Below are positions 47,801-53,800 of a stretch of DNA of 64,000 nucleotides, one piece after another. The DNA comes from Phoronis australis (Eukaryota; Animalia; Phoronida), in NCBI GenBank assembly GCA_002633005.1, contig NMRA01000001.1:4147180-4211179 (forward strand). Reading direction: 5' to 3'. Both the position numbers and the translations under genes were made by a program. Each line of letters begins with the position of its first letter. Position 1 is the stretch's first letter. Below the pieces are notes generated by a model, which was not told the origin of the DNA, did not search any database, and worked only from the letters and a program-made list of their open reading frames with translations.

Positions 47801-50800
47801 TAGGCTGAGTGTTAATCTTTGTCACCCTCCGCCCCTTCTTGTGTCCTCCCTCCTTCTCACTCCCCCTTTTCTCCTCCCGCTTTTCTGACAGTCCCATCTT
47901 TCTATCCCTGCTTTGCACAGAAAAATGTTTATACTAATTGCTTTCTGGCTCCGTGATTGATTTTACTTAGTCTATACTCGAGTAAATGGTAAGGTAACCC
48001 TTGCATTTCGTTTTTAGTTAAATTACAATTTTCTGGCTATCAAAACAAATTCTCATGTTAATTAAATTCCCTGGGCTCTTGTTAATTATATACAAATCCT
48101 CTGGAAGTGACATTCATGGCTCCAATCATTCAATGCCAGTTTTGTGTGATTATTTGTTGTGGACGTTTTTTTCATTGTATACTATTTTCCAAAAATTGAC
48201 GTAATTATTTGCCTTTGACTTGTATTTTCGGACAATCTTAGGTTGAACCGGAACTCAGTTGAGTGGAATTTAGCCATTATTTGATCTGCAGGGAACGGAA
48301 ATAGCTGGAGTCTGCTACCACAAAAATACCATGTATGTTCAATTGCTTAAGGACACGTCTCTTTCAGGTGTATTTCAGAACACTCCCAGAGTACTTTTCC
48401 GCACTCAATCATTTTTCCAGTGATGCTGACAAACGTTAGACTAACCCAGTGACATGCCTCTGTGAGAAAACTGCATGATCATCTTGCCAGCATGTAATTT
48501 CAGATGGCCATCTTTCTTACAATGGCCAAATACTACTGGAGTCTGGTAGCTGCAGATGCTCGTCAATGTGACATTTTGGGGAGACCTGCATAACTTCTCG
48601 AAAAAAAATGAATGGCCACCATCAAACATTCAATAACACCAACTTTGGGGTGCCTGTGGGTAAACATTTCATCTCCCATTTTCATTTACCCGATGACATC
48701 ATTGTGCTGGTGGTGTTGGAGTGTTTACCCAAGACATGCTCTCGTAGAAAGCAGGAAGTCAAAGAAATTCCTTTTTATCAAACCCGCATCTATTGTTGAA
48801 ATCGTTATATGGGATTTGCTACCCATTACCCCGAGGTTTGTTGGCCCCTACTCCAATTTCTGTCCCCCTAGCCATCACCTTTGAACTAAATCCCTTTCCT
48901 GCGCATAGTATTGCTTTATTTTGCTTTTTTCTGTTGCTTGCAACTATTCACCATTGAAAGAGTCTGCGAGGATGACGTGTCTGGCCGCTTTTATTATGTT
49001 TTACTTGTTTATTGTCTTTTTAAATTGTTTTTACTGTTGTGTTACCAGCAATGACATTTTAGTATTTAGTACTTTTTAGCATCGTAGGATATAGTTTCGA
49101 CATTTTTTGTCCCATCATCAGTATCTGTGTTGATGCCATCATCCCTGTTTAGCTGTAAAGACAATAACAACATTGTACAGGATCTTGTGCATTTAATAGT
49201 TAGGGTTTGATACACAATTTCCTGTTGAATTGTGAATTTGTTGATGTGTATATGAAGGAGAATACATGTTATCACGCTAGCCATGAGTGTAGTGAATGTG
49301 TGTATGAAGGAGAATACATGTTATCATGCTAGCCATGAGTGTAGTGAATGTGTGTATGAAGGAGAATACATGTTATCATGCTAGCCATGAGTGGTGAATG
49401 TGTATATGAAGGAGAATACATGTTATCATGCTAGTCATGAGTGTAGTGAATGTGTATATGAAGGAGAATACATGTTATCATGCTAGCCATGAGTGTAATG
49501 AATGTGTGGCAGATACTACTGCTGTTAGTCACTGTTAGCGTCACTGGACCTGTCTCACTTTTCACCTGGTCAGTCTTGTCCATTTTAGTCTGATTGTAAT
49601 ATTCTCAGGGAAGTCTGACTGCTGACGAGGAGGCTGTGCTGATGCAGACCTACCACTACACTAGCGCCACCACCAACATTCACCCACTCCTCTCTTCCAT
49701 GGTTAACTATGCCCAGCCGGTCAAATTTCAAGGCTTTGATATTGCTGAAGGTGAGGCCATTACACTTACAGAATGTTATCAATGGGAGAGTTCTGGAAGA
49801 CATGATACTTGATTATCTAGATCCAGTTACTTGACCTGCTGTGTTTTTATGAGTGACAATTTGGATACTATGTTCTATGATACAAGACCAGTTTGCCACA
49901 GCGGTCCAAAGTGTCACTACGGGCAACAAATTATCCTAGTTGCAGTGGTCTTTCGTAATTCCTCTGTTCATTTTTTTCACGGAATAATTTAAATCTTGAT
50001 TTTTACATCGTTTTTGGGCGAGAAGACCTCAAAAGAAAATCGAGTGCACACTTGTCGCATTTGTTTAGAGTTTTATGAAAATTTTCATGTCTGTTTGGGC
50101 TACTGCAATTTCCTTGAAAAATCAGATTTGTTTAGAAATTACTTGACTACAAAGACCCGTTCATTATTTGCATGCACCTAATGTTTCTGTGATTTTCTGG
50201 GATCCTAAAGATTGACGATTTCTATAAATATGTAAATCTTAAACTGGCACGGTAATATGGATAACAAACATTTTTTGTCTGGTCTGCACGCCACAGGTGG
50301 CCAACAGGTAGCGTGCAGACCAGACTTAGAAATGTTTGTGATAGATGATTTCGTGACTAAAATGTGACTTCTTGTAACAAAGGCGGGCAGTTACCTTAAT
50401 TGGTCAGTCGTTGGTCAAGCTGGAATGAAACTCCCTGATACTGAGCCTGACTTTTGATTTTTCCCGTTTAGAGCGGAATGTCTGTTACAACATGTCCTCA
50501 TTCAATGAAAACACTGGCTTGGGGTATCTCAAAACTCAACCAATAGAATTTGTCAAGTATCCTTTGTTACGGTAATGTATAGTTATCTAACCATGCATGT
50601 TGTCCTAATTGCATGACCCCTAACATGTGACTTTATCAACACGTTCGTTACGGATGACCGGTTTCATACGATCTGTTTCAAATATTGATCTATTTCCAGT
50701 TTCATTTTCAGTCTACCATTTCATTTTTATGTTCCCAGTGGGTTTCACTCCGTCCGTTCACGGTCTCTCCATCGCACCTATGTTATGTAAAATGCTAACG

Positions 50801-53800
50801 ACCTAATGTAGGTGCTTAACCCTGAGCCAGACAGCAGTCCTGGCTCAGTATAACTTTCGATGTTGGCTGCATTTAAGTGTCTGTCATAACCCAACAGGTT
50901 GCCAACACCCTGGTTGAATCAGCGCTATCTAAGCGCTGCTTGTATTTAAGTAATTAACAGTGAATAGTAAACATGCGACTTGAGAGAGCAAAAGAAAATG
51001 CACGTTGAAAAGCACTAAGCTTATCCACGTTTTGGAAAGCATTGATACAGTAGCAATAAGAAAATGTCAAAATTGTATTCAATCATTTTTAATGACCTTC
51101 AGTCTTACCCCGATGTACTTAATTCTACCGTGGGGGTGTGCAAAGTTGTACATTGCATTATTGGGTTCTACCTCGGTGTAATCGTCATTACACCTTGAGA
51201 CAACTTGGGAGGTGTAGTCTGCATCATTCTGGGCACGTGACCACCAAACCTTATTCCAGATTCGACTAAAAAATTGACCGATCATATTGTGTGAAACGTG
51301 TTCATTTTAGTAACGGAAATAGAATCTTATTTCATTAAGGAATGTTATGAAAGTAAAAGGCGTAGTTCGATTTTCATTTTTGCAGGTTAAATAGGGCAAA
51401 CTGCAGCTTTAAGAATATGAAATGTACTGCCATGTCTGTAGTAGATAAATGTATTTTAATACTTAGTAGTTCAATGTGCCTGTTCTTATCTGTTGACATT
51501 TTTTATGAAGACTTGTCATGTGTTATATCCATCACTGTATCATGCAACTAATATCATTTAACATTCCCAGGGAGGGGATTCATACAAACCAGTTTTATTT
51601 TCGATCCACCTGACTAAGGACCTAATTGCATTGGGTTCAAAATATATTGGTTTGTTTGATGGTAGTCCTAGCCTCGTTTTTTTCCTGTATAATTGTTGTT
51701 TTTGTTATGAATGTGGTTTATTCCTGATTATTGTCAGCTGTTGCATGTGCTTGCTTTTTATTTACTTCTAGAACAGAACTGTCACTATCACATGTCGTCT
51801 TTCAATGAGAATGCTGCTCTGGGCTTTATAAAAAACTATGTCATAGAACTGGTAGAGTATCCTTTTGCGTTGTTATTTGTTGCATTTCTTGTTTTGTTTT
51901 AGTTAGTTTGTATATTCCCAGTTTTATGTTAATTTATTCTTGTTATATAAAGTGTTTTCAACCTGTGTTCTCTTTGTCTAAACAGCCCAAGATACAGCCT
52001 TCCTACTAGTTACAAAATAACATACATCTTTTGATGAGCTCAATATATCATATTCAAAACAGAATTGTTTGTTTGGTGCAAAAGGTTTTGACTTGTTATC
52101 AAGACAGAGTTCTTGCAAATTTTCCAGTGTATTTAAAAAGACATTATTGTTTTTTCGGACAAAAAATGCATTGTGGGATTATTGATGGATGGGATAGACT
52201 TCTTGAAGTTATTGGCTTTGAACAGAGTTATGAAAGAACACCATCTGTTGTGTTTTTGTGATTTTATTACAAATTGCCAAATCTCACTGTTGGCTGCCAG
52301 ACATTCACTAAAATTAAGACTGGTGACTTTACCATCACTTAAAAAATTCTGTGATTCATAGAGTGGCATTATCTTCACCAGCAGGGCATCAGGTAGGGGT
52401 TCTAGATACGAATCTGCACTAGGCTGATTTTGAAAAATCACTTTCAGATTTCTCGCCAGTAATGTCTCTACAAGTATCGAGCTCTACAAAGTTTCGAAAA
52501 TATTTCAAAGCTGTACACGTCGGGCAGTTAGCAATCTTTGACAGAAGTAAGCGTGGACTGACTTTGCAAGCTGACCCACTTCTTTTTTCCCACATTTTAT
52601 ACTTGGTCACTTACATTGCGGTACTTATTTTCCCAGATTATTGTCATATTTTGGTGGTTTTAGTAAATTCCATTAGTTTGCATGGTTGACTAACAGGTAG
52701 TTTGGTGAAATGCGACACGTTTGTCTTGACATGCTTGGATATCGTGCGCTTGCATTTTGCTAGTTGTATATTTATAACTGTTTGCCTGTTATTTTGGTTG
52801 TTTTATGCTCATGGGTGGAAGAGCAGTCACTTGATGAATACGTAAAAATTTTATTATTGTTGTTGTATACTTGTGCAGGATGAGACCCATGTCATCTAAA
52901 TTGGGGAAACTTGATAATAATCTGGGATAGTTGTCATTCTGAGGGTGGGCCAACGCGGTGAAGAACACTTCTCCCAAACTACCCATTATTTTGACATTAT
53001 TCATGCAAGAATGTTTATCTTCTTAAATTTTACAACTCAAAAAATATTTCTATCACACAAAGCTATTCATTTGTGGAACAAAAGATCATTTGGAAAATTT
53101 TCCTTTTTTGCCATTGGTCATTCCAAGCCCTGCAACTTGAACGCGTTCGACAATTCAAGTATTTTTCTGCACATTTTTGTCTTTGCACACTCGGAATTAT
53201 ATGATGTCTGAGAAATGGAAATTGTGCTTACACCTTCAAAATAGTAAGGCAAAACATAAGTAACAATGATTAAAACTACAATAACCTGTAGACAGTATTT
53301 AATGCTGGTTCGTTTTACTGTGCGTGTGTTGATTTCCTTAACGAGCTACCAGCTACAATAAGCGACAGATGAGTCGGATCTACCCCAAAGGGAACAGAGT
53401 AGAATCCACCAACTTTATGCCACAAGTAAGTATTTTTAAACACTTTCGTCTCATCTAAACAATATTATGTCTACATAGTCTCCTGTCTAATATAAACAAA
53501 GCCTCTTACCTGACAAACTGGAATGTGATAACAAAATTGTTCTTTGAATTTTTTTTACGATTTTGTGTTGTGTATGGATGCTAAATAGCTTTATTTCTTT
53601 TTTTTGGTAAAAGTTACATTTCGTGTACATGTTCATTCTAGCTAATACGTATCGTGCTCATGATGTCGTGTTTGTATTCGTTTACATATTATCAGTATTG
53701 TTGATAGTTCTTGATTACTGTAGTACGCAAATTATAACTAACTTGTGCATGCATGGAAGCTGTTGTAGCAAATTGTGGACTGGATGTCCCAAGAAAAGGT

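Follow-up and report, generated by a model that had tools for sequence, protein, structure and literature searches.

Exclusion of one exon by another through incompatibility of the major (U2) and minor (U12) spliceosomes is a textbook mechanism with few cases, namely the JNK genes and 5 of 629 human exon clusters (Hatje et al. 2017, PMC5740500). In JNK2, the order of elements is a U2 intron, an exon, a hybrid intron, a second exon and a U12 intron (Chang et al. 2007, PMC1874599). Here we describe a comparable arrangement in a PLCB4/norpA-type phospholipase C-beta (PLC-beta) gene of the phoronid Phoronis australis, found in a stretch of 64,000 nucleotides (nt) (contig NMRA01000001.1, positions 4,147,180 to 4,211,179), hereafter the window, within which all coordinates are counted. 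As described for exons 6a and 6b of the vertebrate JNK genes (MAPK8/9/10; PMC1874599, PMC3584512), exon 18 of this gene is duplicated into 18a and 18b, with a U2 intron upstream, a U12 donor behind each copy, a hybrid intron between them and one U12 acceptor, and in the samples seen the downstream copy predominates. The locus differs from JNK in gene family and lineage and in having relatives with up to three copies. Its two acceptors are equal in pyrimidine content (0.77 each), whereas the default of JNK2 is set by a long tract; the candidate regulator is Rbfox-type rather than Nova, and the case made here is built on sequence and reads.

The human U2/U12-incompatible clusters (PMC5740500) belong to the same mechanism class. 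PLC is unnamed in the main text of that survey, and a text search of 10 of its supplement files returned neither U12 nor PLCB. The present case differs from those clusters in that the vertebrate PLCB4 sequences examined have the exon type of 18a alone (a type; that of 18b is termed b type below). A U12 intron is itself expected in a PLC gene, in line with the report of minor introns in 60% of phospholipase C family genes (Baumgartner et al. 2019, PMC6865273), whose relevant passages describe them as plain, with no duplicated exon before them; fish PLCB4 gene models that read through show the same donor (KYPL ends). The tandem exon pair of protostome Ca-alpha1T (Martinez-Gomez et al. 2022, PMC9741552) is likewise an old invertebrate substitution absent from chordates, but it lies in another gene, and the passages describing it mention no U12 involvement. 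Caenorhabditis elegans is described as being without the spliceosome-incompatibility mechanism (PMC4165533). The original prediction, made from the letters of the window, knew of no such arrangement in PLC-beta, and our literature search, with most subscription journals outside its coverage, likewise found no description of this PLC-beta4 exon pair. An alternative exon of Drosophila norpA, a gene of the same orthologous family, is said to lie in the N-terminal region; the search returned nothing on it.

The exon pair and its splice signals

The features of the locus are given below. Read counts refer to three raw-read RNA runs of one study (X1/X2/X3), about 18-19% of each being read, and a joint was listed from 3 reads with 2 starts upward.

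17804-62785, + strand: PLCB4/norpA-type phospholipase C-beta gene, about 29 coding exons seen by tblastn with relatives' proteins; it extends beyond 62785
49609-49750, + strand: exon 17, ending in phase 1, with the major-type donor GTGAGG; joint to 51772 in 5/11/0 reads
50445-50471, + strand: major-type acceptor of 18a, with a pyrimidine tract and AG but lacking a U12 branch point
50472-50556, + strand: exon 18a, 85 nt, the conserved copy, like the single vertebrate PLCB4 exon; 3 exon-confined reads
50557-50565, + strand: U12 donor GTATCCTTT of 18a, from sequence
50557-51771, + strand: hybrid intron 18a-18b, 1215 nt, with U12 donor and major-type acceptor; no 50556-51772 joint listed
51748-51771, + strand: major-type acceptor of 18b, used in 16 reads
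51772-51856, + strand: exon 18b, 85 nt, the faster-evolving copy and the main form in three RNA samples
51857-53352, + strand: U12-type GT-AG intron of 1496 nt with donor GTATCCTTT (51857-51865), removed exactly in 10/8/1 reads
53334-53342, + strand: U12 branch point TTCCTTAAC, ending 10 nt before exon 19
53353-53425, + strand: exon 19, PI-PLC Y domain (Pfam PF00387), with RNA joints

The best matches to the gene product were proteins named PLC beta-4-like, and the exons aligned end to end with full-length beta-4-like proteins in tblastn. Identity over matched columns was 70-79% to most spiralian and vertebrate rows; the closest rows were Chaetopterus (79% over 892 columns), Lineus and Owenia, whose order is not separable. 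Pfam X and Y domains were found on single exons, and the end-to-end match accords with the PH-EF-X-Y-C2-coiled-coil layout and the similarity to PLC beta-4 expected of a PLCB4/norpA subfamily member. The exon numbering agrees with the tblastn exon count, in which small exons were possibly missed.

Exons 18a and 18b were found exactly where they had been predicted, as two paralogous 85-nt exons. They share 15 of 27 whole-codon residues (16 of 29 with the split codons, E/E and N/D) and 51 of 85 nucleotides, and since 9 of the 15 identical whole codons differ in DNA, the duplication is judged to be old. The copies are homologous, of the same phase and of compatible length, and both frames are open through exons 17-20. 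A profile scan for a third exon-18 copy in the window gave a best further score of 3, compared with 84 and 82 for the pair.

Both copies are followed by GTATCCTTT, which occurs on the + strand of the 64 kb at these two sites only, with an expectation of 0.37; the chance of this donor 9-mer given GT is 8.5e-5 per donor. Among 27 donor positions checked across the gene's exons, several of them entered 1-2 nt off, a match to RTATCCTTT was found at two, those of 18a and 18b. Other GTATCCTT sites, at 22772 and 27765, are intron-internal and were discarded as exon ends. Upstream of the copies, the best U12 branch point 6-16 nt before the acceptor has 4 mismatches at 18a and 3 at 18b. The predicted combination of an ordinary AG acceptor and a U12 donor holds at each of them. 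The sole zero-mismatch U12 branch point in 49751-53352 is TTCCTTAAC, which confirms that the one consensus site lies just before exon 19. Its branch A is 11-12 nt from the intron end, within the optimum of 11-13 nt from the 3' splice site given for TTCCTTRAY branch points without a long pyrimidine tract (PMC3584512). Near 50812 lies a cryptic U12-like acceptor with 2 mismatches and an AG 10 nt further downstream; it was rejected, its read depth being zero. The intron at 51857-53352 thus has the donor and branch point of a U12-type intron and is removed at those ends in RNA (19 reads).

Use of the exons in RNA and in related animals

In the sampled RNA, 18b is the main form and 18a a minor form. 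The joint of exon 17 to 18b was carried by 16 reads in total and that of 18b to exon 19 by 19, and the joint of exon 19 to 20 was found in 4/7/1 reads. At the low depth available, no 18a-18b joint, 17-19 joint or any joint of 18a reached 3 reads in X1, X2 or X3. Depth over 18a in X2 was 2.0 in all five bins (exactly 50472-50556) and 0 after the exon, and the bin before it had a depth of 0.24, equal to four bases, the amount expected if two reads each carried over the AG of exon 17; the two reads are possibly one fragment. X1 contributed one 18a read, from about 50480 to 50560, while X3 and X4 contributed none, and the contigs of X4 covered no exon at all. All three 18a reads aligned in part only, as spliced reads do. 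Inclusion of 18a, seen at this low depth, has sharp boundaries, and exons 17 and 19 are its presumed partners. The original prediction had named an absence of 18b reads together with decay of orthologous 18b as one outcome that would speak against it, and the opposite was seen, 18b being the main form and conserved; the other such outcome, common joining of 18a to 18b or of exon 17 to 19, was not seen. Of the junctions it proposed to count, those of 18b were found.

We also looked for trapped hybrid-intron RNA. Sense-strand depth was 2-4 at 51209-51771 and none at 50606-51007, a patchy coverage like that of other introns, including intron 19, and the depth upstream of 18b is probably pre-mRNA background. 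Dispersed intron repeats at 50261-50342 (a hairpin-like inverted repeat), 52171-52392 and 53023-53134 draw many foreign reads on both strands. At the exonic positions 49719 and 55111 all reads carry A for G, which indicates that the RNA samples came from other individuals or alleles than the window.

Twenty protein clusters were looked up, 18 spiralian and 2 vertebrate. Both exon types were present in 14 of the 18 spiralian clusters (Owenia, Lineus, Haliotis, oysters, Mya, Mytilus, Pomacea, Octopus, a cephalopod-like Logan cluster, Aplysia, Biomphalaria, scallops, Patella and Schistocephalus/Spirometra); the 15 members listed for the cephalopod-like Logan cluster comprised 7 a, 6 b and 2 truncated forms. 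One type only was seen in Chaetopterus (1 member), Macrostomum, Paragonimus and Echinococcus, and the a type alone in the vertebrate clusters (n = 2). Besides these clusters, Priapulus and Trichinella gave one type each. Among 307 proteins, 221 span exons 17-19, and 215 of these contain one cleanly joined copy, including 4 scallop b forms with 5 extra residues. Two others (P0082 and P0271) contain a copy of each type, a preceding b, and the intron between them is read through; four are other odd gene models, and a direct a-b join was found in none of the 221. In the P0082 model, from Hymenolepis, exons a and b are bridged by an in-frame stretch of 74 nt, which is either an artefact of the prediction or a very short hybrid intron that was retained. 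The isoforms are present in RefSeq as X1/X2 models, without comment. Exon 18a is 85% identical to a bivalve a exon, and mean identity within type is 72% for a and 51% for b. A homolog search with the 18b stretch gave no matches; one with the Lingula region gave 43, mostly vertebrate, with no named arthropod or invertebrate deuterostome among them.

The same layout was sought in metagenome DNA with a pattern of exon plus U12 donor, which returned 98 stretches; 97 loci were stored and 10 were dropped as chance (stops, no AG, low identity). This pattern is blind to loci whose donor turned major-type. A profile scan that did not require the donor then added extra copies, and GTATCCT followed all 6 copies found by profile alone. 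Of the 6 non-redundant multi-copy loci, which together contain 14 copies, two are bryozoan-like with 2 copies each, one is bivalve-like with 2 (the first of 91 nt), one is partial with at least 2, and two have three. The combination of a U12 donor with a U2 acceptor is conserved in these 6 related loci, with hybrid introns of 508-1944 nt. Over the multi-copy loci and the window, U12 branch-point mismatches were at least 3 at 16 of 16 exon-18 acceptors and 0-1 at 5 of 5 exon-19 acceptors, and this contrast holds over all distinct loci (67 exon-18 and 27 exon-19 acceptors, many of them kin). The arrangement is spread across Spiralia in one to three copies and is not peculiar to this genome. It is not universal there, as all 14 clitellate-like loci checked between exons 17 and 19 have a single copy.

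In the three-copy loci (L026/L027 at 4796-8065 as oriented, L071 at 963-4317), each copy has an AG acceptor and a GTATCCTT donor, and the protein of the middle copy is identical in three loci. Clitellate-like animals (loci L001, L015, L030, L057 and similar) have two PLCB4 paralogs with one exon-18 copy each, one resembling the first and the other the middle copy of the three-copy loci. Exon-19 branch points of clitellate-like loci are more degenerate, with 0-1 mismatch in 2 of 22.

Proposed mechanism of mutual exclusion and choice of exon

Exons 18a and 18b are almost certainly true alternatives, and we put the probability that a JNK-type spliceosome-incompatibility lock is the main mechanism at roughly three in four. 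Under this mechanism the major-type donor of exon 17 would join either major-type acceptor, as observed for 18b, and the U12 donor of the chosen copy would join exon 19, the only good U12 partner, again as observed for 18b. By analogy with JNK2, the donor of 18a should be unable to pair with the acceptor of 18b, and that of exon 17 with the acceptor of exon 19, so the hybrid intron is predicted not to be removable. The two signals of the layout would leave exon 17 free to take either acceptor and the remaining copy able to take only the U12 one. Leaks would shift the frame, with decay as a backup: counted from the start of exon 17, the product with both exons was computed to stop at codon 88 and that with neither at codon 54, which bears out the frame shift foreseen in both cases. 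Mutual exclusion and the layout of U2 acceptors and U12 donors, as originally predicted, are supported by the reads, by the isoforms of relatives and by genomic conservation, while incompatibility as the lock is what we infer by analogy with JNK2.

Several points weigh against this reading. Read depth is low, and a wrong joint with fewer than 3 reads per run would go unlisted; the support for 18a is 3 reads, perhaps 2 molecules, with inferred exon partners. RefSeq isoforms are mostly predicted models, and many of the 215 single-copy proteins are uninformative vertebrate sequences. Splicing across minor introns by the major spliceosome is reported (PMC6865273), and the early stops mean that decay predicts the same steady-state RNA.

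Which exon is chosen may depend on TGCATG motifs near both copies:

50594-50615, + strand: two TGCATG motifs (50594, 50610), candidate Rbfox enhancers downstream of 18a
51742-51747, + strand: TGCATG, candidate Rbfox silencer 30 nt upstream of 18b

Rbfox proteins act through UGCAUG placed upstream of a repressed exon and downstream of an activated one, and by this rule the sites would turn 18a on and 18b off. The first two lie 38 and 54 nt after 18a; the gene-wide rate of the motif is 0.45 per kb, and its placement around the copies was noticed after the fact. Within 100 nt upstream, GCATG is present at the last copy in 4 of 6 related loci, at 0 of 8 other copies and at 6 of 51 other exon-18 loci; three of the four bearing loci are kin, and the two bryozoan-like loci have no such motif. 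TGCATG downstream of the first copies is not conserved in the related multi-copy loci. These patterns are no more than suggestive of an Rbfox-type switch, in which 18b would be the default here and an Rbfox-type factor may shift splicing to 18a.

Explanations other than the lock were weighed against the same data. Double inclusion and skipping might occur freely and be removed by nonsense-mediated decay, the U12 signals being merely copied along; both wrong products do stop early, and all copy lengths seen (85, 91 and 100 nt) preserve phase, each being 1 mod 3, so that two, three or no copies shift the frame; lengths of this kind occur in 60% of human clusters (PMC5740500). We consider this unlikely, because the absence of a U12 branch point at all 16 exon-18 acceptors means that an 18a-18b join must cross spliceosomes, which JNK2 does not do, and because P0082 and P0271, both predictions, read through the intron instead of joining the copies. 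That exclusion is mainly the work of regulators or of competing RNA pairings, such as Dscam-like docking or a loop over 18b, whatever the spliceosome type, appears less probable still. The motifs do flank both exons, and an inverted repeat at 50582-50597 with 52679-52694 would loop out 18b, but this RNA bridge was rejected: of 40 shuffles, 28 gave a duplex as good as the best one in that region, which is one of 36 inverted pairs. In the two bryozoan-like loci the layout is present although the motifs are missing, and regulators would account for the choice of exon, not for the never-both rule. Steric hindrance was set aside as unlikely given the lengths of the hybrid introns. Finally, the contrast between 35 junction reads for 18b and only 3 reads on 18a, with X3 contributing none of the latter, might suggest that 18a is vestigial in this species and 18b constitutive. 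We regard this as very improbable: 18a is intact, has the exact donor, is close to the bivalve a exon and belongs to the more conserved type, and its 3 reads are exon-bounded; the three samples moreover belong to one study, with tissue unstated.

Origin of the pair and consequence for the enzyme

Under the lock mechanism, the pair would have arisen by duplication of an exon already lying before an old U12 intron, and the copies would have been exclusive from birth; the duplication probably happened a single time in early Spiralia, after which copies were gained or lost to give 1-3. Exon trees were built on 27 columns with 20 rows (five unassigned left out) and with 26 rows. All b copies fell on one side of a branch, with weak support (45/90 with 20 rows, 61/92 with 26), and 0 of 500 label shuffles were as clustered. 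In approximately unbiased (AU) tests, a mollusc-only duplication was rejected (p 0.026; one of five tests, uncorrected), whereas duplications restricted to the window, annelids, flatworms or Lineus were unrejected in four of the five sets (p 0.10-0.32). Branch support on 27 columns and a single AU rejection out of five thus make a weak case for a single origin. One early spiralian origin is nevertheless the simplest reading, because of the same copy order and the common b signature (Ala15 in 15 of 20, Cys23 in 17 of 20). The b type resembles human PLC-beta2/beta3 in having Ala at position 15 and an acidic residue at the end; the a type has Gly and Asn at these places. This likeness is either convergent or inherited from an older state.

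At 19 of 21 positions, the middle copy of the three-copy loci agrees with the exon of Dugesia. It clusters (89/92) with the a exons of flatworms and with one of the clitellate-like paralogs, the other paralog being nearer the first copy. These hints offer a lead to a three-part ancestral array that may have been split between gene duplicates. More broadly, an exon between a major and a minor intron might be a self-locking cassette, which Spiralia expanded into an array of as many as three catalytic exons of PLC-beta4; this array would have had three parts in the spiralian ancestor, been tissue-switched via Rbfox-type sites and later been split between clitellate-like duplicates, with the first-type exon in one paralog and the middle-type in the other. 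We hold this whole scenario to be doubtful.

Exon 18 aligns with human PLC-beta3 residues 611-637, as counted from alignments, and by match coordinates its second serine falls at about position 390 of the PLC-delta1 1DJG chain. We take that chain to start at residue 133, which would make this position Ser522. The equivalence to Ser522 proposed in the original prediction fits, in that the match coordinates agree while the residue assignment depends on the presumed chain start. Ser522 is reported to bind the 4/5-phosphates of the substrate (PMC12195575). Every a-type segment (23 of 23) preserves the motif M-S-S-F-x-E. All b-type segments (20 of 20) preserve S-S-F-x-E, one of them with V in place of M, and in two bryozoan-like last copies the first S is replaced by C. 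Both enzymes would retain the MSSF-E strand, while 13 of 29 residues differ between them, a change that would tune rather than abolish activity. Mapping of the exon-18 residues on AlphaFold models was abandoned, two models being too poor over the barrel (mean predicted local distance difference test score 61 and 51).

Several repeats occur elsewhere in the window. A 48-nt minisatellite at 55437-55628, present in 4 copies that are 99% alike, duplicates the acceptor and opening codons of exon 21. Four AG acceptors in frame (55466, 55514, 55562 and 55610) result, with no stop, and each upstream one would add 16 residues. Further minisatellites lie shortly before exon 17 at 49244-49507 (unit of 52 nt, 5 copies) and at 8467-8619 (24 nt, 6 copies).

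To the few cases of exclusion by spliceosome incompatibility, this locus adds an invertebrate one kept in at least four phyla, whose natural one-, two- and three-copy states let exclusivity from birth be tested. The Gq effector PLC-beta4 comes in two or three forms in molluscs, annelids, nemerteans and tapeworms, and these differ inside the catalytic Y domain, beside the substrate-binding serine. Work on Aplysia, octopus, oysters or cestodes that treats PLC-beta4 as one protein would miss these forms, and the exon pair ties minor-spliceosome activity to calcium signalling.

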